DNA of 64,000 bases, taken from contig URDK01000004.1 of NCBI GenBank assembly GCA_900546485.1, positions 4,589 through 68,588 of the forward strand, written 5' to 3'. This DNA comes from an uncultured Eubacteriales bacterium. Lineage in GTDB: Bacteria; Bacillota; Clostridia; Oscillospirales; Oscillospiraceae. A model generated the notes under the pieces. It had not been told where the DNA came from. It searched no databases and saw nothing but the letters and a program-made list of their open reading frames with translations. Within the stretch, counting starts at the first letter, position 1; every line of letters begins with the position of its first letter. Both the position numbers and the translations under genes were made by a program. Positions 32,691 through 48,293 of this stretch are shown in pieces.

Positions 32691-32758
32691 GTGCCCAATA
32701 GGGCAGTTCGGGAGGAAGAACCGGACTGTGAGTGATAAATAAATTTAAGGAGGACGAC

Positions 32759-34057
32759 ATGAAGAAACTACTTGCGCTTATCCTTGTCGCTGCGCTCTGC
32801 GTGGCCCTGCTTGCCGGCTGCGGCACGACTGAGACCACCACCAGCGAGCCCCCCGCGGACGACGCGGCTGAGAGCCCGGCCGGCGGCGATACCGCTGCAA
32901 CTGAGCTGAAGCTCTGGCTGCCCGTCTATCAGTTTGGCGACGGCATCTCCGACGAGGAGTTCTGGAACGAAAAGCTCGATGCGTTCGAGGCCGAGAACAA
33001 CTGCACCGTCACCGTTGAGATCCAGGGCTGGACCGACTATGCTACCAACATCTACACCGGTCTGCTCTCCAACGAGGGTCCGGATGTTGTCTACGTCACC
33101 GAGACCTATGACATCATCAGCTCCGACCTCATTATCCCCCTCGACCCCTACCTGACTCAGGAGGACTATGACCTCTATATGTATCTCGAGCAGGGTGCCT
33201 ACAACTCTAACGGCGAGCTGTGCACCTTCCCGATGATGCCGGGCAACCCCTGCGTCATGTACTTCAACATGGATATGCTTGAGGCTGCCGGCATAACCGA
33301 GCTCCCCACGACCTGGGATGAGTTCTACGATGTCTGCGTTGCCCTCAAGGAGGCCAATCCCGACGTAATGCCCTTCACCTCCTCCTGGGGTGCCTCCAAC
33401 GGCGTTTCCGCGCTTCTGACCAGCTTCTGGCCCTTCTTCTTCCAGGCCGGCGGCACTGTCCTGACCGAGACCGGCGAGCTGAACATGGACAGCGAGGCCA
33501 CCCTCGAGGCCCTGAACTTCATCAAGAAGCTCCGTGACGCTGATATACTCGATGAGAGCGCCGTCTCCATGGATGATCCCGGCGGAAAGTTTGCCAACGG
33601 TGAGGCCGCTATAGTCATCGTCGGCACCGGCACCAGCGGCAGCTTCACCGAGGCCGGCATCAACTGGGAGTGCATCTTCGCTCTCGAGGGCCCCGGCGGC
33701 ACCGCCACCAACTTCTCCGTTGACTCCCTTGCCATCAGCAAGTACTGCGAGAACCCCGAGCTCGCTGCCAAGCTCATCAAGTACATAACCAGCGCCGAGT
33801 GCATGGATGACTTCCACACCCAGATCTACGGCATGCCTTCCATCACCACTGACGCCACCTACACTGAGCCCGAACCGTTCCAGAGCATGTACACTGACTA
33901 CGCTGACGCCATGTACGCCGTTCCCTCCTTCGAGGGCAGCGCCTCCTTCATGGACACCTTCCAGCAGAACGTCCAGGGCATGCTCATGGGCCAGCTCACT
34001 CCTGAGCAGGTCATCAGCGAGACCATGACTTACTACAACGAGCAGATAAAGCAGTAA
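32759..34057 (+). CDS. Sugar ABC transporter substrate-binding lipoprotein (family 1 SBP)
   Basis: Lipobox LLAGCG. 432 aa. Confidence 0.8.
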   Translation: MKKLLALILVAALCVALLAGCGTTETTTSEPPADDAAESPAGGDTAATELKLWLPVYQFGDGISDEEFWNEKLDAFEAENNCTVTVEIQGWTDYATNIYTGLLSNEGPDVVYVTETYDIISSDLIIPLDPYLTQEDYDLYMYLEQGAYNSNGELCTFPMMPGNPCVMYFNMDMLEAAGITELPTTWDEFYDVCVALKEANPDVMPFTSSWGASNGVSALLTSFWPFFFQAGGTVLTETGELNMDSEATLEALNFIKKLRDADILDESAVSMDDPGGKFANGEAAIVIVGTGTSGSFTEAGINWECIFALEGPGGTATNFSVDSLAISKYCENPELAAKLIKYITSAECMDDFHTQIYGMPSITTDATYTEPEPFQSMYTDYADAMYAVPSFEGSASFMDTFQQNVQGMLMGQLTPEQVISETMTYYNEQIKQ

Positions 34058-34073
34058 CCCAGTAACCTCTTGG

Positions 34074-34120
34074 AAACCGGGCATGGCCGGAGAACGACGA
34101 TGCCCGGTTTCTCCTATTTT
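34074..34120 (+). terminator. Intra-operon hairpin (partial terminator/attenuator) between the SBP and permease genes
   Basis: aaaccgggcat...atgcccggttt followed by a T-rich tract. Confidence 0.45.
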
Positions 34121-34141
34121 AAGCAAGGTGTGGTGAACGGT

Positions 34142-35038
34142 ATGAACAAAGCGAGGCGGCGCTCTCCTCTGATGCGCCGGCAGGCGGCCTACGGCATTGC
34201 CTATATAACACCTGGCATGCTGATTGTTATGGCCTTCTGCATCGTGCCCATCTTTATGACGCTGTATTACAGCTTCACTAGCTACAATCTGGCGCAGGAC
34301 CCGACTTTTATTGCGCTGGAAAACTATGAAAAGCTGTTTACAAACACGCAGCTGCGCAAGGCACTGTGGAACACGGTCATTTATGTCATCATAACTGTGC
34401 CGCTGCAGACGCTGCTGGCTATGTTTGTGGCTAACTTCCTGGCAGAGTATCTCAATAACCGCTATGGCCGCTTTCTGCGCAGCGTCATCTTCATTCCAAC
34501 GCTTGTGAGCTATGTGGCCGCGGCTACGGTGTGGAAGATAATACTCGCCGACAAAGGCGGACTTTTGAACGAGTTTCTCGCTCTGTTTGGTATCCAGGGA
34601 ATGAACTGGCTGGGTGACCAGAAAACGGCACTGATCTGTGTATCGTTGGTTGCCGTATGGAAGAGCGTTGGCTACTTCACTATCATCTTCTACGCCGGCA
34701 TAATGAACATATCCGTCGACGTCCGCGAGGCGTCGATCATAGACGGCGCAACGCCAAGGCAGAGATTCTGGCGCATAACGGCGCCGCTGCTCAAGCCCAT
34801 CACCTATATGAACGCTACACTGGGCATAATCTGGTCCTTCCAGGCCTTTGACATCGTATACAAGCTGACCGGCGGCGGGCCGTTTAACTCCACGTCGACG
34901 ATCGCCTACATTATATACGCCTACGGCTTCCAGGATTATCGTATAGGCTATGCCTGCGCGATAGCCATAATGCTGCTGATAGTTATCCTTATAATACATC
35001 TGATTCAGCAGCATTTCTTCGACGAAAAGGAGGAGTAA
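34142..35038 (+). CDS. Sugar ABC transporter permease (MalF/UgpA-like)
   Basis: 6 TM and an EAA loop. The start is uncertain (34100 or 34142). Confidence 0.75.
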   Translation: MNKARRRSPLMRRQAAYGIAYITPGMLIVMAFCIVPIFMTLYYSFTSYNLAQDPTFIALENYEKLFTNTQLRKALWNTVIYVIITVPLQTLLAMFVANFLAEYLNNRYGRFLRSVIFIPTLVSYVAAATVWKIILADKGGLLNEFLALFGIQGMNWLGDQKTALICVSLVAVWKSVGYFTIIFYAGIMNISVDVREASIIDGATPRQRFWRITAPLLKPITYMNATLGIIWSFQAFDIVYKLTGGGPFNSTSTIAYIIYAYGFQDYRIGYACAIAIMLLIVILIIHLIQQHFFDEKEE

Positions 35039-40012: not shown

Positions 40013-40735
40013 ATGATGAAGCTTACCCGACGCATAACCGCCCTTGCACTTGCGCTGCTGATGCTCACGGCTCTTGCGGCCTGCGGAAGTAGCTCCGACG
40101 ATCCCGCCTCCCCCAGTGACGAGGTCATAGGCGACGTCGCCTCCAGCGCGGCGCCAAGCGAAAGCCCCGAGGCGTCCGAGGAGCCTGAGGAGAGCGCCGA
40201 ACCCACTCCTACCCCGACGCCTGTTCCCACGCCCACTCCTACGCCTGTTCCGACACCGACTCCCGTTCCGTCTGTGCAGCCAACTGAGCAGCCTGTGGAT
40301 CCCAGTGAGACTCCCGGTGCTCAGCCCAGCGAAAATCCGGACGGCGAGAGCGTTGACCTCAGCGCGTTTTACGATACGGTGACGTCAAGCTATGAGTTTG
40401 CTTCCCTTTCTGACCTCGACAGCACTATGCTTGACACTTATTACCCGGGGCTTACCGCAGTTTCCACCCTCCAGCTTATTGCAAAAATGCCCATGATCAG
40501 TGCCAGCGGGCATGAGATAGTGCTCATTCAGTGCGAGAATTCCGACGACGTGGCGACTGTTCAGGCCATACTTGAGGCACGCAAGCAGACTCAGGTCGAT
40601 GGCGGTGCCTGGTATCCTGAGACAACGGCCATCTGGGAGGCCGCCCAGATCTGTGTCTCCGGCAATTATCTGATGCTCATCTCGCACGAGAACGCCGCCG
40701 ACATAGCCGACAGCTTTTACGCACTCTTTGCCTGA
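40013..40735 (+). CDS. DUF4358-domain lipoprotein with a Pro/Thr-rich linker
   Basis: Lipobox LAACGSS, a (TPTPVP)n linker and a C-terminal domain (...ICVSGNYLMLISHEN). Confidence 0.7.
   Translation: MMKLTRRITALALALLMLTALAACGSSSDDPASPSDEVIGDVASSAAPSESPEASEEPEESAEPTPTPTPVPTPTPTPVPTPTPVPSVQPTEQPVDPSETPGAQPSENPDGESVDLSAFYDTVTSSYEFASLSDLDSTMLDTYYPGLTAVSTLQLIAKMPMISASGHEIVLIQCENSDDVATVQAILEARKQTQVDGGAWYPETTAIWEAAQICVSGNYLMLISHENAADIADSFYALFA
40198..40272 (+). repeat. Imperfect tandem hexanucleotide-level repeat encoding the PT-rich linker (PTPTPVPTPTPTPVPTPTPVP)
   Basis: Read directly. Confidence 0.6.
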
Positions 40736-40765
40736 TAATTCTGACAGCCCGGAGGGACGCCGCAG

Positions 40766-42163
40766 ATGGTCTTTTCCAGCATACTGTTCATGTTCATATA
40801 TCTGCCCGTGGTGCTGTTTCTCTACTACATCTCCCCGGTCAGATGGCGCAATCCCATACTTTTTGTTGCAAACCTTGTGTTCTACGGCTGGGGCGAGCCT
40901 GTTTTCATCGTCCTCATGCTGTTTTCCATCACGATAAACTATATAAACGGCATGCTCATAGGCCGCTGGAGGCTTGAAAAGCAGAAAAAAGCCAAGACTG
41001 TCCTCGTGATAAACGTGGTCATAAACCTGGCCTTGCTGGGCTTTTTCAAGTACTACGATCTCATTGCCGAGACGCTCAGCCTCCTGCCGTTTATTGATAT
41101 CAAGCCCCTGGGCATCGCGCTGCCGATAGGTATCTCCTTCTACACCTTCCAGACGATGTCCTACCCGATTGACGTCTATCGCGGTGACGCAGACGTGCAG
41201 AGAAACTACGTCAGCTTCGGCACCTTTGTGGCGCTGTTTCCGCAGCTCATTGCGGGCCCCATCGTTCGCTACAAGGATGTGGCGGACCAGCTTAATTTCC
41301 GCGCGAGCAGCATCGACCAGTTCTCCTCCGGCGTCGAGCGCTTTATGGTAGGCGTTGCGAAAAAGGTGCTCATTGCAAACAGCCTCGGCAAGCTCTGGGA
41401 CTATTATGCCGCGGTGCCGGCGGGAGAGCTCACCTTCCTGGGTTCCTGGCTGGGCATAATAGCGTTCACGCTGCAGATATACTTTGATTTCTCCGGCTAC
41501 TCCGACATGGCCATAGGACTTGGCCGTATGATAGGCTTTGAGTTCGAGGAGAACTTCAACTACCCCTACATCTCAAAGAGCGTGACCGAATTCTGGCGTC
41601 GCTGGCACATGTCCCTCGGTACATGGTTCCGCGACTACCTGTATATTCCCCTTGGAGGCAACCGCTGCGGCAGAGCCAGACAGCTTTTGAATATCACCAT
41701 TGTATGGGCGGCCACCGGCATTTGGCATGGTGCGAATTGGACCTTCCTTCTCTGGGGACTGTACTACGCGGTGTTTTTGATGATTGAGAAGCTCTTCCTG
41801 CTAAAAAGGTTGGAAAAGCTGCCGGTATTGGGCCACATTTATACTATTATTGTGGTCATGTTTGGCTGGGTCATGTTCCAGCTCGACAGCCTTACCGCGA
41901 TCGGCAATTACACCAGCGCCATGCTCGGGTTCGGCGCGTCCAGCCTGGCGGAGTCGGCGGACCTGTACTATCTGAGCAGCTATGCGCTGACGTTTGTGAT
42001 AGCCATACTCGCCTCCTTGCCCCTGGGCAGCCGGCTGTTCGGCAAGCTGCCGGATAAAGTCAAGCGAGTTGCGGCTCCGACGCTCATCGTGCTGGCGCTG
42101 ATCCTGTCTACAGCCTATCTTGTGGACGCGACCTACAATCCGTTCATTTACTTCAATTTCTAA
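40766..42163 (+). CDS. MBOAT-family membrane O-acyltransferase (AlgI/DltB/PatA-like)
   Basis: Conserved His in WRRWHMSLGTWFRDYLYIPLGG. 465 aa, polytopic. Confidence 0.85.
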   Translation: MVFSSILFMFIYLPVVLFLYYISPVRWRNPILFVANLVFYGWGEPVFIVLMLFSITINYINGMLIGRWRLEKQKKAKTVLVINVVINLALLGFFKYYDLIAETLSLLPFIDIKPLGIALPIGISFYTFQTMSYPIDVYRGDADVQRNYVSFGTFVALFPQLIAGPIVRYKDVADQLNFRASSIDQFSSGVERFMVGVAKKVLIANSLGKLWDYYAAVPAGELTFLGSWLGIIAFTLQIYFDFSGYSDMAIGLGRMIGFEFEENFNYPYISKSVTEFWRRWHMSLGTWFRDYLYIPLGGNRCGRARQLLNITIVWAATGIWHGANWTFLLWGLYYAVFLMIEKLFLLKRLEKLPVLGHIYTIIVVMFGWVMFQLDSLTAIGNYTSAMLGFGASSLAESADLYYLSSYALTFVIAILASLPLGSRLFGKLPDKVKRVAAPTLIVLALILSTAYLVDATYNPFIYFNF

Positions 42164-42175
42164 GGAGGGCCCGGT

Positions 42176-43300
42176 ATGAACAAAAAAGCACTATGGGCCG
42201 AGGCCCTCATCTTTCTGGCGTTTATAGGAGTGTTTTTCATCCTGAATCTTGTACTGCCTGACCGGCAGTTTTCTGAGCAGGAGAATCGCTACCTGCAGCA
42301 GCGACCGGAGTTCAGTTTCAAGAGCCTGTTCAGCGGAGACTATACCTCCAAATTTGAGACCTATACCACAGACCAGTTTACCTTCCGGGACGAGTGGATA
42401 ACCCTCAAGGCTGCGAGCGAGCTTGCGCTTGGCAAGCAGGAGAACAATGACGTCCATCTCTGCGAGGGCGGCACACTGATAAAGGGCTTTGAGCGTCCCG
42501 ATGACTCGACTCTGGACTCAAATATGTCCGCGCTGAACGCGCTGGTTGAGAACACCGACGCTGATGTGTATTTTGCACTTATTCCCGACAAGTCCGACCT
42601 CTACGCCTCGCTTTTGCCTAATAATGCTCCTAATGACAGCGAAAAAGAAGTAATTGACTATTGCTATGATAAGTCCGGCGCCATAAACGTGGACATGTAT
42701 TCAGCGCTCAGCTCACACACTGACGAATATATCTTCTATCGCACCGACCACCACTGGACCAGCCTCGGCGCATACTATGGCCTTTCGGCCCTCGCCGAAA
42801 GCATGGGCCTCCCCTGCCCTGCGCTTGATTCCTACACTGACAGACATGTGGTCTCCGAGGAATTCTACGGTACAACCTGGTCGTCCTCCGGCTTCTCCTG
42901 GGTTGATCCGGATACTATGGAGATCTTTGTTGATGAGCCTGAAGGCCTGAAGGTCACCAGCTACCCCGAGGGCAGCCCGGTAGAGGGCAAGCTCTATGAT
43001 TTCAGCTTCCTTGAGAAGAAGGACAAGTACTCCATGTTCATGGGCGGCAACTGCCCGATGCACGTCATAGAGACCGGTGCTGAGGACAAGCCGAGTCTGC
43101 TCATTCTTCGTGACTCCTATACGGACAGTCTTATTCCCTTCCTTCTCGATGACTTCTCTGAGATACATGTACTCGACCTGCGCTATTACCGCGCCAGCCT
43201 CAAGGCATATATGGAGCAGAATGACTTTGATAACGTACTCGTTTGTTACAGTGCCTCGAACTTCTGCACTGACTCAAACATCTTCCTATTGGGTATGTGA
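42176..43300 (+). CDS. DHHW-family protein (AlgX/AlgJ/PatB-like extracytoplasmic O-acyltransferase partner)
   Basis: N-terminal TM, then the YRTDHHWT motif. 374 aa. Confidence 0.8.
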   Translation: MNKKALWAEALIFLAFIGVFFILNLVLPDRQFSEQENRYLQQRPEFSFKSLFSGDYTSKFETYTTDQFTFRDEWITLKAASELALGKQENNDVHLCEGGTLIKGFERPDDSTLDSNMSALNALVENTDADVYFALIPDKSDLYASLLPNNAPNDSEKEVIDYCYDKSGAINVDMYSALSSHTDEYIFYRTDHHWTSLGAYYGLSALAESMGLPCPALDSYTDRHVVSEEFYGTTWSSSGFSWVDPDTMEIFVDEPEGLKVTSYPEGSPVEGKLYDFSFLEKKDKYSMFMGGNCPMHVIETGAEDKPSLLILRDSYTDSLIPFLLDDFSEIHVLDLRYYRASLKAYMEQNDFDNVLVCYSASNFCTDSNIFLLGM

Positions 43301-43390
43301 GAAGATATGAATACTCACTGTCAGTGAAGGTAAACGCACTAAAAAAGCAGCCGTCCATTAGGACGGCTGCTTTGCTTTGGGTCCGTTTTT

Positions 43391-45373
43391 TTATCGTGCC
43401 TCGTGTTTGCCCTTGGGTACCCGAAGCTCGCCGTTGAAGGCGAGAATGGAAACAAGCGCAGCACCGACGATGGCTATGGAATCGATAAATACCGAGAACC
43501 ACAGCGTGGAGAGGCCGAAGCCCGCAAGCAGCATGAGCACCAGCTTCACGATGGCAGACGCGCCGATGACAGCCGTAGAGAGCATCTTGGCATAGCGCGA
43601 AACTGCAATGGCGAGGGATATCTTGTCCACACTGCCGCCAAAGACGGTGATGTCAGTGCCTACAGGCATTGTCAGCGCCTCGACGCCGGTCATCGCGATA
43701 TCTATGTCAGCCGCAGTGTGCGAGCCTCCAAAGGATTCGCCGCTGCCTACAAAGGTCAGCCCGCGTCCGGGGACGCAGCCGCCCTTGACTTCGGCAAGAG
43801 TTGCGCGCATCTTTTCGCGGTCGCACTCGGAATAGTACTCGGGAATGCTGAGCGCCGAGGCGGCTCGAGCCGCGGAATCACGGCTCTCATCCGTGAACAT
43901 GATGACGCTGTCTATACCGCAGGCTTTGAGCTCGGCGACACCCTCTGCGGCATCGGCACGCAGCTGGTCGGTCATCACGATGCGGCCCGCGTATTCGTCG
44001 CCGATTGAGATATAATATGAGAAGTCGTCTGAGATGTCCGCGTCGGGTACCGACACGCCCTTTATCATCATGAGGTCACGGCTGCCCACGCAGATGCGTA
44101 TGCCGTCAACCTTTACCTCCACCCCGCTGCCAGGTATCTCTACAAAGTTCTCTATGAGGTCAATGTAGATCGTGTCGCCGTAGCAGGCAATGACGGAACG
44201 GGCCTGCGGAGTGTTAGAGTATGCAAGGGCGTGTGCCGCTATCTTGAGCAGCACGTTGGACTCCATACGTTCTGACTTGATGGCAACGACCTTGGGACTG
44301 CCTTCGCTGAGAGTTCCCGCCTTGTCGAAGGCCACAGTGCCGGTGTTGGCAACGCTGTCCATGGCGTTGCAGCCGTCAAAGAGCACGCCGCTCTTGGCCG
44401 CGCCGCACATGGCGCACAGCCGGATAAGCGGAACGGCAACATTGAGTGCGCAGGGGCTTGCCAAAACGAGCAGCATGGCTGCACGACGTACGGATTCCTG
44501 AATCGTGATGTCGAAAATCAGCGGCAGCAGCACGAGCACGAGGATAGCCGCTACGGTCACGATGGGGGTAAGGTAAGTCTGTATCCAGCCGAAGGATTTG
44601 GGAACCACCTCTCCCCTCTTTGCGCCGTTTTCAACAGCGGCAAAGAGCGCGGCAGCAGCGGAATCCGAGGAAAGCGAAGTAACTTCGCAGCGGAGCTGGC
44701 CGTTCTGATTGAGGCATCCGGAAAGTATCTCGTCGCCTTCCTTTACCAAAACAGCGCCGGAGTAGTCGCCAAGAGCCGAGCGGTCAAGGCTGGACGTACC
44801 CTCAAGCACAATGCAGTCACAGGGTACGCGCTCACCGGGATAGATGACTATGGTGTCCCCGACCTCGATGGTGTCGGCCGGTACAGTCTCCTCCTCCCCG
44901 TCGCGCACTACGTGCGCGTCATCCGGTTCGCAGTAGATCTGGTCGAGCACGGAGCGGTAAGTGCGTATGTAAGCATACTCGACAAACAGGCAGCCTATCT
45001 GATAGAGCAGCACAAGCGCCGTGCCCTCGATAGCAAAGCCGAATATGAGCGCGAGAATGACGGAAAGCGTTATAAGCACCGTCTTGTCCAGATACCGGCC
45101 GCGCATAACGCTCAGCACCGCGCCAGCTGCGATATCCCAGCCGGCAATGAGAACCGAGACAATCAGCAGCACTGTCGGCCAGGGTGCAGGTATGGAACGT
45201 ACGAGCAAGGACACCGCAAACGCGGCGCAGGAAACGATGAGCCTTACTATGAAGACGATGTCAAGTCCAAGCTCGTCTGAGCCGCCCGGGCCGGAGCCGG
45301 CCGCTCCGGAGCAGTCTCCGGAGCAGCTGAACCGTCTCCCGACGGACTTTTCGAGGATTTCGGTAAAGTTCAT
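43391..45373 (-). CDS. P1B-type (heavy-metal) ATPase homologue with degenerate catalytic motifs, a putative pseudo-ATPase
   Basis: 8-TM P1B architecture with an SPC TM6 motif, colinear with CopA/CzcP. DKTGT is DKAGT, TGES is absent, TGDN is TDES, and GDGxND is GSGESF. Confidence 0.7.
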   Translation of the reverse strand: MNFTEILEKSVGRRFSCSGDCSGAAGSGPGGSDELGLDIVFIVRLIVSCAAFAVSLLVRSIPAPWPTVLLIVSVLIAGWDIAAGAVLSVMRGRYLDKTVLITLSVILALIFGFAIEGTALVLLYQIGCLFVEYAYIRTYRSVLDQIYCEPDDAHVVRDGEEETVPADTIEVGDTIVIYPGERVPCDCIVLEGTSSLDRSALGDYSGAVLVKEGDEILSGCLNQNGQLRCEVTSLSSDSAAAALFAAVENGAKRGEVVPKSFGWIQTYLTPIVTVAAILVLVLLPLIFDITIQESVRRAAMLLVLASPCALNVAVPLIRLCAMCGAAKSGVLFDGCNAMDSVANTGTVAFDKAGTLSEGSPKVVAIKSERMESNVLLKIAAHALAYSNTPQARSVIACYGDTIYIDLIENFVEIPGSGVEVKVDGIRICVGSRDLMMIKGVSVPDADISDDFSYYISIGDEYAGRIVMTDQLRADAAEGVAELKACGIDSVIMFTDESRDSAARAASALSIPEYYSECDREKMRATLAEVKGGCVPGRGLTFVGSGESFGGSHTAADIDIAMTGVEALTMPVGTDITVFGGSVDKISLAIAVSRYAKMLSTAVIGASAIVKLVLMLLAGFGLSTLWFSVFIDSIAIVGAALVSILAFNGELRVPKGKHEAR

Positions 45374-45415
45374 CGAACCCCCTCCTTAAAACTTGGGATA
45401 TGCGCCGGGAAGGTC

Positions 45416-46354: not shown

Positions 46355-46462
46355 AAAAATTATCTCCTTTGCAAGCGGTAAATTTATGCTATTGCTTATT
46401 TATTATATCCCAAACGTGTGATATAATCAATAACACCTTTTTAAGAATTTGGAGGTAACAAT

Positions 46463-47758: not shown

Positions 47759-47840
47759 GCATTTCACGGCCTGGTGGGCTTATGCATAACATGGGTTGAG
47801 GGCCTCCGCCCTCGCTACGACATTTAGGAGGCAACGAAAA

Positions 47841-48293
47841 TTGGAAAAAACCGATACACAGGGCACCTGCACCTATAAGCAGGGCAGCCTGCCTGAGTGC
47901 GCGCCGCTCGCGCTTGCTCAGATACCGGCGCAGCAGAGCAGCGAACCGGCATATAAGAGCGGCGAGGCGCTCACGCGCGGCACGCTTTTCCCGGGACTTG
48001 ATCTTCCCTTCAAGAACATCGTCAACCAGATGCCTGCCGAGACCACGGAGCTGCGTGAGCTCATGGCGCTTGACTTCGTTACGGATGAGCTGAACCTGTA
48101 TCTCGATACTCACTCCGAGGATACTCAGGCCTTCGAGACATTTAAAACCTTCCTCAAGCTCTACGACGAGGGCCGCAAGGAGTATGTGTCACGCTTTGGA
48201 CCTCTCAGTCTCTCCGACCTGGCCTCTGCAAAGAGCTATACCTGGCTGAACGACCCCTGGCCCTGGGAATATGTGAGCAGCAAGGAGGGCTGA
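47841..48293 (+). CDS. cotJB: Spore-coat-associated CotJA-CotJB fusion protein
   Basis: The N-terminal part matches CotJA (...EALTRGTLFPGLDLPF) and the C-terminal part matches CotJB (LMALDFVTDELNLYLDTH...NDPWPWEY), in one frame with no stop. TTG start with an AGGAGG RBS. Confidence 0.65.
   Translation: MEKTDTQGTCTYKQGSLPECAPLALAQIPAQQSSEPAYKSGEALTRGTLFPGLDLPFKNIVNQMPAETTELRELMALDFVTDELNLYLDTHSEDTQAFETFKTFLKLYDEGRKEYVSRFGPLSLSDLASAKSYTWLNDPWPWEYVSSKEG

Follow-up and report, generated by a model that had tools for sequence, protein, structure and literature searches.

A conserved family of catalytically degenerate P1B-type ATPase relatives in uncultured Oscillospiraceae, probably kept for a role other than pumping

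A gene in a 64,000-nucleotide (nt) stretch of DNA from an uncultured Eubacteriales bacterium of the Oscillospiraceae (assembly GCA_900546485.1, contig URDK01000004.1, positions 4,589 to 68,588; hereafter the window) encodes a protein of 660 amino acids (aa) that appears to be a conserved pseudo-enzyme, descended from Zn/Cd-type (P1B-2-like) P-type ATPases, which would be unable to run the E1/E2 cycle and would act by binding; we give this reading a probability of roughly 0.6. Its parts differ in strength. That the protein is a functional pseudo-enzyme, non-pumping and selected for, is very probable from the comparison of sequences, and a binding, regulatory or scaffold role of its cytoplasmic head is the likeliest of several possibilities, with a chance a little short of even. 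The catalytic motifs of P-type ATPases have been treated as invariant, and a dead lineage under selection would be a rare natural experiment on the scaffold without its engine. What began as a single odd protein turns out to be a conserved family of three architectures, one of them a branch without the actuator (A) domain, and with a re-specialised nucleotide-binding (N) domain. No description of a bacterial family of catalytically dead P1B-ATPases was found in the full-text literature, a scope that leaves out most subscription journals.

The protein, its catalytic motifs and its former metal site

Homology of the 660-aa protein to P-type ATPases is far above chance level. It is a multi-pass membrane protein with both domains of the superfamily: Pfam places E1-E2_ATPase (PF00122) at aa 150-327 (E = 3.4e-32, 111.9 bits against a cut-off of 28.1) and the HAD-like Hydrolase domain (PF00702) at aa 346-516 (E = 2.1e-11, 45 bits against a cut-off of 26.4). 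The NCBIfam ranking is topped by the heavy metal translocating P-type ATPase model (TIGR01525, 293.4 bits, trusted cut-off 346.25) and the cadmium-type P1B model (TIGR01512, 234 bits, trusted cut-off 313.5), yet every heavy-metal ATPase model stays below its threshold. A weak N-terminal NCBIfam match to the StsA sactipeptide family (E = 0.016), also below its cut-off, was rejected as a chance match, the local Cys residues not being kept in orthologues. The best solved relative is ZntA (PDB 4umv; HMMER E = 5e-48), which aligns in one collinear stretch, query residues 46-636 against ZntA residues 132-719. An AlphaFold2 (AF2) model built on the alignment of the clade (predicted local distance difference test, pLDDT, 85.4; predicted template modelling score 0.78) has eight membrane helices (MA, MB and M1-M6), an A-domain beta-barrel, and the phosphorylation (P) and N domains. 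With this model as the Foldseek query P1B pumps rank first (ZntA, E = 2e-35), and the top TM-score, 0.75, belongs to 7r0g, the E1-state structure of a copper pump. The full P1B fold, with eight transmembrane (TM) helices and the A, P and N domains, is thus predicted to be retained.

The fold is kept while the catalytic residues are replaced. Motif statistics were taken from an alignment of 62 degenerate and 68 canonical proteins, in the numbering of the 660-aa protein, and nine diagnostic residues were scored: E204, D350, T352, H388, G495, D496, D544, N547 and D548. All nine are present in 68/68 canonical pumps; the window protein retains one of them, Asp350, and no degenerate member of the clade has more than six. 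The Glu of the TGES loop is found in 6/62 members of the clade and lost in 56/62. The phospho-acceptor Asp350 is found in 45/62, its position being occupied by D, S, N, E or A among the orthologues closest in type (the Scatomorpha type, below), and the following Thr352, Ala in the window protein, in 12/62. His388 of the HP motif is kept in nine members and Gly495 in 16. At the GDGxND hinge, Asp544 persists in 6/62, Asp548 in 15/62 and the canonical Asn547 in about 3%, so that each Asp of the Mg2+ site is missing from more than 75% of the clade. As judged from these alignments, the residues for Mg2+ binding, dephosphorylation and adenine binding and the Gly/Asp pair of TGD have been replaced. 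The GxG motif is still there, Gly415 and Gly417 both being present in the window protein and Gly417 kept in 60/62.

These motifs had first been read from the letters of the window by a model that made no database search (the sequence-only reading). The forms that it quoted, namely LGDYSG, SPC (in ASPCAL, aa 305-310), DKAGT, SNTP, TDES and GSGESF, were all found in the sequence and in the ZntA alignment, and with them the loss of both Mg-coordinating Asp residues. Its statement that every catalytic motif is degenerate stands in that each motif is substituted at least once, but Asp350 and Lys351 are still present. Neither the motifs of catalytic competence (DKTGT, TGES, and TGD with GDGxND) nor the P1B motif SEHP is intact in the window protein, and no intact copy of any catalytic motif occurs elsewhere in the 660 aa, either in the collinear ZntA alignment or in the profile and structure-guided alignment that the sequence-only reading had called for.

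A set of phosphate-cradle residues has outlasted the Mg2+ ligands in the clade: Gly353 (57/62), Thr354 (42/62), Thr/Ser494 (58/62) and Lys522 (39/62). Such a pattern fits a non-catalytic pocket for phosphate or another ligand, or plain maintenance of the fold. A protein 99% identical to that of the window (P0001, from an ENA contig) has an in-frame deletion of seven aa that removes exactly GSGESFG, the former GDGxND hinge; since it comes from a single 2-kb contig, this deletion could be an assembly artefact.

The membrane domain has kept its frame and lost much of its metal site. In M4, Pro307 of the former CPC motif is kept in 50/62 members, whereas Cys308 is kept in 27/62 against 68/68 pumps, and N, S, T and C all occur at position 306. 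The clade has also lost the Met/Gly of M1, the Tyr of M3 and the Gly/Asn of M6, each of which more than 90% of the canonical proteins carry; the Gly of DxG in M6, for one, is found in 2% of the clade against 94% of the pumps. The M2 carboxylate position, Glu in 34/68 canonical proteins, is Cys128 in the window protein and variable across the clade. Three residues of M5 and M6 have remained, Lys610 (aligned to ZntA K693) in 61/62, Trp625 in 60/62 and Asp631 (aligned to ZntA D714) in 52/62, with Glu in six more, and Phe626 of M6 is newly conserved. Elsewhere in the membrane domain, Asp80 in the MA-M2 region is conserved in 58/62; Arg44 is found in 95% of the clade, yet it is present in the closest canonical relatives too.

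Measured against the P1B subgroups, the window protein has the Lys610 and Asp631 of P1B-2, SPC with an unconserved Cys in place of CPC, and a replaced M6 Gly; these features point to descent from that subgroup rather than to functional membership in it. The P1B-4 combination of SPC with an M6 HEGxT is missing, M6 reading FIDSIAIV. The sequence-only reading had described a P1B ATPase of Co/Zn/Cu type that keeps its length, TM layout and SPC motif. The 660 aa, the eight-helix layout and SPC are indeed there, but SPC is not a conserved feature, orthologues with 92% identity carrying SPS; and the nearest type is Zn/Cd (P1B-2, by TIGR01512 and ZntA), neither Co nor Cu.

Distribution, selection and origin

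The full-length relatives returned by a search of 5.8 billion proteins form a gradient that runs from 99% to about 35% identity, and TGES, HP, TGD and GDGxND are missing from every one of them; the canonical pumps, which have all motifs intact, rank lower. Scanning one genome per GTDB species yielded 79 loci, 46 degenerate and 33 canonical, and motifs and neighbours were tabulated for all. None of the 46 degenerate loci has a broken reading frame and, wherever the upstream sequence is available, fba (on the same strand, usually at 29-125 nt) and a divergent pfk lie directly upstream. The 33 canonical loci have intact motifs, and neither fba nor pfk is near any of them. The hosts of the degenerate loci are uncultured Oscillospiraceae (Ca. 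Scatomorpha, Ca. Limivicinus and others) of chicken, human and ruminant guts, and genes of cotJ, spoIVA, spoIIR, yunB and the sigF operon in the loci suggest that they are spore formers.

Three sub-types can be distinguished among the fba-linked proteins. Sub-type i, the Scatomorpha type (loci L010-L035), has about 640-665 aa and 92% to 34% identity to the window protein; sub-type ii consists of two proteins of 634 aa (L037 and L038); and sub-type iii, of about 550 aa, comes from Ca. Limivicinus and from ruminal and caecal metagenome-assembled genomes labelled 'Ruminococcaceae'. In sub-type iii the region aligned to residues 147-236 of the window protein, which is most of the A-domain, is deleted. 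The AF2 model of one such protein (P0075; pLDDT 80.5) has the same membrane core and P/N head, with two short helices at the place of the A-domain, and its best Foldseek matches are again ZntA and 7r0g. We know of no P-type cycle that runs without an actuator domain, and the missing A-domain of sub-type iii argues independently that the function of the family would need no E1/E2 cycle.

Pairwise ratios of nonsynonymous to synonymous substitution rates (dN/dS, or omega; Nei-Gojobori) are 0.05-0.19 for pairs of the Scatomorpha type and 0.02-0.13 for sub-type iii and the pair L034/L035; in the same Scatomorpha-type pairs, the genes fba, pfk, DHHW and MBOAT mostly give 0.01-0.10. The gene is therefore somewhat above its neighbours and far under neutrality. 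Its protein diverges quickly, identity falling to 26-31% across orthologues where Fba stays at 76-87% and Pfk at 72-80% (Fba is 76-99% identical across the full-length matches in the loci). The sequence-only reading had taken several independent losses in one protein as a sign of a non-pumping derivative rather than of sequencing noise, and had named intact close orthologues as the sign of a dying gene. No intact close orthologue was found: the whole clade is degenerate from 99% to about 26% identity, in 46 species-level genomes with open frames. Shared degeneracy, open frames and dN/dS of 0.02-0.19 argue together for a conserved degenerate clade, neither noise nor a dying gene, and the clade-wide loss of motifs under purifying selection, with most of the A-domain gone from sub-type iii, bears out the non-pumping derivative.

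The constraint is greatest in the N-domain: three pairwise comparisons give it an omega of 0.011, 0.047 and 0.053, each time below that of the whole gene. In mean column conservation no other domain scores higher in the clade than in the pumps (0.54 against 0.46 for the N-domain); the A-domain has 0.39 against 0.56, and the P-domain, in its second half, 0.39 against 0.62. The residues that are newly conserved lie mostly in the N-domain, His381 (59/62), Tyr398 (53/62), Lys377 (48/62), Tyr385 and Tyr454 being conserved in the clade and not in the pumps; Phe626 of M6 and Cys187 of the A-domain lie outside it. Where the constraint falls speaks more for a cytoplasmic head that binds or regulates than for a metal pathway that has been retained. 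As a separate observation, the A-domain of the window protein has a Cys triad (C185, C187 and C229). Cys187 takes the place of the Gly that canonical pumps have in the P(V/A)DG strand in 46/53 degenerate proteins that have an A-domain, and the full triad is found in 22/53 of them and in 0/68 pumps; it is missing from sub-type iii. It could be a new metal or redox site.

The degenerate group is larger than a few sequences. Among the 140 new best matches of a profile search through 1.84 billion representatives at 50% identity, 54 lack at least two of five motifs, so the group is diverse. In a neighbour-joining tree of 171 proteins the window protein, the three fba-linked sub-types and several unlinked degenerate representatives fall in one clade of 45 tips, all degenerate, which shares the derived residues His381, Tyr398 and Phe626; the clade and the shared residues agree with a single origin. 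Basal members retain two or three of the five scored motifs, all of them without GDGxND and most also without the Glu of TGES. The series looks as though a single early inactivation had been followed by mosaic drift in motifs that were no longer of use, and graded loss of this kind is useful for reconstructing the path from pump to pseudo-enzyme.

Two intermediate states would be useful for dating the order of the losses. P0133 (L091, 6001..7992) has kept DKTGT, HP and TGD and otherwise shows conservative changes only (TGDP, SDGLSE); next to the spoIIAA-spoIIAB-sigF operon, it follows an ArsR-type (HTH_5) regulator, and activity may persist in it. P0139 (L092, 4632..6569) has kept TGE, HP and TGD and lost CPC (now TYT) and GDGxND. 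It lies co-directionally about 150 nt past DHHW, directly after an integrase-MBOAT-DHHW block like the one that adjoins the gene in the window.

The locus and its neighbours

The positions of the gene, its domains and its neighbours are collected in Table 1.

Table 1. Features of the window; residue numbers are those of the 660-aa protein (ORF, open reading frame)
Feature	Residues	Position in window	Strand	Basis or remark
Pseudo-P1B-ATPase coding sequence, 660 aa		43391..45373	minus	ATG 45371-45373, TAA stop 43391-43393; ORF list
MA, MB, M1 and M2 helices	39-146	44936..45259	minus	AF2 model
A-domain homologue	147-258	44600..44935	minus	Pfam E1-E2_ATPase spans aa 150-327
Cys triad of A-domain	185-229	44687..44821	minus	
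TGES loop, now GDYS (within LGDYSG, aa 201-206)	202-205	44759-44770	minus	sequence and ZntA alignment
M3-M4	259-329	44387..44599	minus	conservation counts
Former CPC site, now SPC	306-308	44450-44458	minus	sequence
P-domain, first half	330-368	44270..44386	minus	direct read
DKTGT, now DKAGT	350-354	44312-44326	minus	sequence and ZntA alignment
N-domain homologue	369-470	43964..44269	minus	most constrained part
SEHP, now SNTP	386-389	44207-44218	minus	sequence and ZntA alignment
P-domain, second half	471-582	43628..43963	minus	Pfam Hydrolase match ends at aa 516
TGD, now TDE (within TDES, aa 494-497)	494-496	43883-43894 (TDES)	minus	sequence and ZntA alignment
GDGxND, now GSGESF	543-548	43730-43747	minus	sequence and ZntA alignment
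M5-M6	583-648	43430..43627	minus	keeps P1B-2-type Lys610 and Asp631; also Trp625-Phe626
Intrinsic terminator past the stop		43341..43373	minus	folding; 13-bp stem, 4-nt loop, U6 tract
Spacer between fba and pseudo-ATPase gene, 42 nt, Shine-Dalgarno AAGGAGGGGG		45374..45415	minus	GGAGG 45381-45385, 7 nt before ATG
fba, class II fructose-bisphosphate aldolase, 312 aa		45416..46354	minus	directly upstream; PF01116
Sigma-70-like promoter candidate		46402..46430	minus	TTGATT, 17 nt, TATAAT; 10/12 matches; consensus scan only
DUF4358, MBOAT, DHHW unit		40013..43300	plus	convergent on pseudo-ATPase gene
CotJA and CotJB in one ORF		47796..48293	plus	
cotJC remnant, 38 aa		48296..48412	plus	N-terminal part
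Acyl_transf_3/alanine racemase ORF, 698 aa		17852..19948	minus	
ORF of 748 aa, probably not a gene		32768..35014	minus	no Pfam match

The gene follows fba on the same strand and has its own ribosome-binding site (RBS), as the sequence-only reading had noted, and this adjacency is conserved in the lineage where upstream sequence is available. Folding revealed no hairpin in the spacer (z = +1.9), and a pattern scan found no terminator-like site between the two genes. The candidate promoter lies about 48 nt upstream of fba. Past the stop codon of the pseudo-ATPase gene, the terminator has a GC-rich stem and folds with -31.5 kcal/mol (z = -7.1; 0/200 shuffles fold as well); it is common to the convergent DHHW gene. 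The pattern scan missed it because A-U pairs lengthen the stem into the U-tract, and folding confirmed it. Promoter, spacer, RBS and terminator fit a transcription unit of two genes, fba and the pseudo-ATPase gene. The GC content of the gene (0.54-0.59) matches that of the surrounding window (about 0.55-0.60), and no second P-type ATPase was found among the large ORFs of the window that were inspected.

The gene stands in a collinear block of the core genome, composed of cotJ, pfk, fba, the pseudo-ATPase gene, DHHW-MBOAT-DUF4358, a xer-type integrase gene, DUF6873, radA and amidase_3. Downstream of the genes of sub-types ii and iii no conserved partner was found, only core-genome neighbours (xer-type integrase, radA, amidase_3 and spoIVA). 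Linkage to fba as a defining feature of the family was considered and ruled out: P0140 lies in a cotJ/DHHW-MBOAT block without pfk and fba, P0130 lies beside spoIIR, and P0133 and P0139 follow an ArsR-type regulator and DHHW, respectively. Because of the collinear core block and these remote degenerate relatives, a functional link to fba is no more than a possibility.

Several neighbours are of interest in their own right. The convergent three-gene unit encodes, besides an MBOAT acyltransferase and a DHHW/AlgX-like protein, a DUF4358 protein whose long linker is rich in Pro, Thr and Glu, and the MBOAT-DHHW pair also adjoins remote degenerate relatives without fba. The cotJC gene (Mn-catalase family) of the window is a short remnant; it has 198-199 aa in L001, L002, L006 and L009, and is a 60-aa remnant in L003 and L005. 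A spore-coat gene seems to have been truncated here in a lineage-specific way, next to an inserted Fe-ADH/glycosidase block. Farther off, the 698-aa ORF encodes a fusion of two parts, a membrane Acyl_transf_3 domain at aa 13-319 and, at aa 342-696, the whole of an alanine racemase, an architecture that we take to be that of VanT-type membrane-bound serine/alanine racemases. The 748-aa ORF is overlapped by plus-strand ORFs at 32732..34057 and 34070..35038 and is probably a shadow ORF in GC-rich DNA.

Possible functions and comparison with known systems

How could a P-type ATPase without its engine be of use to the cell? In the model that we favour, the protein would sit in the membrane as a static E1-like body, held by the retained pair of M5 Lys610 and M6 Asp631. 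It would work by binding, not by catalysis, and the surfaces under selection would be the remodelled N-domain and the membrane core. The N-domain, perhaps with the residual phosphate cradle (Gly353, Thr354, Thr/Ser494 and Lys522), would bind a candidate partner at the membrane, either a protein or a small phosphorylated or nucleotide molecule, and the outcome would be a regulatory or scaffolding role tied to the expression of the glycolytic gene fba. A narrower version, which we regard as unlikely, makes the protein a receptor: the dead HAD/N-domain head would bind a glycolytic metabolite, such as a sugar phosphate, or the aldolase itself, and so couple the glycolytic state to a process at the membrane. 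If true, no bacterial family of pseudo-P-type ATPases before it would have had a defined function other than transport.

Several points weigh against the model. The adjacency to fba could be inherited synteny rather than functional coupling, and the remote degenerate relatives P0140, P0130, P0133 and P0139 lack it. Long-branch attraction could inflate the monophyly in the neighbour-joining tree. Asp350, Lys351, Gly353, Thr354, Thr/Ser494 and Asp/Glu496 persist more often than expected from drift alone, and some phosphate chemistry or binding may be left over at the old active site. The near-invariant Lys610, Asp631 and Trp625 of the membrane core would also fit a retained ion site. The AF2 models of the 660-aa protein and of P0075 are predictions.

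The last ion-site residues lead to a rather improbable alternative, though one with several observations on its side, in which the ATPase machinery no longer works, yet the old ion site of the membrane domain would still hold, or let through, a divalent cation (or protons). The protein would then be a facilitator, a channel or a receptor, possibly supplying or sensing the metal of the aldolase (Zn2+, Co2+, Fe2+ or Mn2+), class II aldolases being metal-dependent enzymes. Besides Lys610, Asp631 (or Glu), Trp625 and Pro307, its ancestry among Zn/Cd pumps, the ArsR-type metal regulator that still precedes the basal P0133 and the tight linkage to fba in this lineage speak for a passive pathway or metal sensor. 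However, the thiolate ligands are unconserved, the M1 Met/Gly, M3 Tyr and M6 Gly/Asn are lost, the M2 carboxylate position is variable, and the TM domains are less conserved than the N-domain. Moreover, the Lys-Asp pair is reportedly a salt bridge in the metal-free state, according to the ZntA structure paper of 2014, so that conservation of Lys610 and Asp631 may be purely structural; and we know of no natural channel derived from a P-type ATPase.

An improbable role, less so only than the two that follow, is that of a membrane scaffold or regulator for the adjacent MBOAT/DHHW pair, a cell-envelope O-acyltransferase system, unrelated to fba. The pair adjoins the gene, convergently, in all Scatomorpha-type loci whose downstream sequence is available and unrearranged; it also adjoins P0140 (convergent, no fba) and P0139 (co-directional). 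However, it is not found near sub-types ii and iii or P0130 and P0133, the collinear core block can explain the adjacency, and the two are not co-transcribed in the window, since they are convergent with a terminator between them.

That the protein is an active pump with non-canonical motifs is very improbable. It keeps Asp350, Lys351, Gly353, Thr354 and Thr494, and P0133, with its conservative changes, may still work; yet S, N, E or A stands in place of the phospho-acceptor Asp in orthologues with 50-70% identity, the Mg2+-site Asp residues and the TGES Glu are gone from most members, and sub-type iii has the A-domain deletion. From the established enzymology of the family, we know of no P-type ATPase that functions without these residues. 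A decaying pseudogene, or an artefact of assembly or sequencing, would agree with an evolution much faster than that of Fba and Pfk and with an omega usually 1.5-4x that of the neighbours, but is refuted by the open frame in 46 independent species-level assemblies, the omega of 0.02-0.19, the confident AF2 folds, a conserved start with an RBS, the terminator and a GC content like that of the window.

A conserved lineage that is catalytically dead yet under selection would matter beyond this locus. Related proteins carry the source labels "HAD-IC family P-type ATPase" or "Cd2+/Zn2+-exporting ATPase", and recognition of the family would correct metal-resistance annotations in gut metagenomes. 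It would also point to a membrane function linked to glycolytic gene expression in abundant uncultured Oscillospiraceae, and would surprise specialists in P-type ATPases.

Among known systems, the ZntA/CadA-type Zn2+/Cd2+/Pb2+ ATPases of subgroup P1B-2 are the best match in sequence and fold, an example being ZntA of Shigella sonnei (4umv/4umw). The window protein shares with ZntA the eight-helix topology with MA and MB, the A, P and N domains in the same order, and the Lys of M5 and Asp of M6; its short N-terminus without an HMA domain is that of the closest canonical relatives in Oscillospiraceae (L036 and L040). Unlike ZntA, it has substitutions in TGES, the Thr of DKTGT, HP, TGD and GDGxND, SPC in place of CPC, and no Gly in the DxG of M6, and unlike the genes of ZntA/CadA-type pumps its gene lies behind fba and is not paired with a metal regulator. 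It falls short of every catalytic criterion and of the NCBIfam cut-offs and ought not to be classed with the heavy-metal ATPases.

The P1B-4 ATPases (such as PfeT, CzcP and CtpD) are SPC-type Co2+/Fe2+ pumps. The SPC tripeptide in M4 and the short N-terminus are like theirs, and this likeness is behind the earlier "Co-type" label; but the M6 HEGxT, which is present in a canonical Paenibacillus protein (L045), is missing, SPC is unconserved and the catalytic motifs are lost. The one functional analogy known to us, for a P-type body used without its catalytic motifs, is that of the apicomplexan guanylate cyclases, which keep a degenerate P4-ATPase-like domain for a non-pumping purpose. Those proteins are eukaryotic, of P4 type and fused to a cyclase, whereas the window protein is a free-standing bacterial derivative of P1B type.

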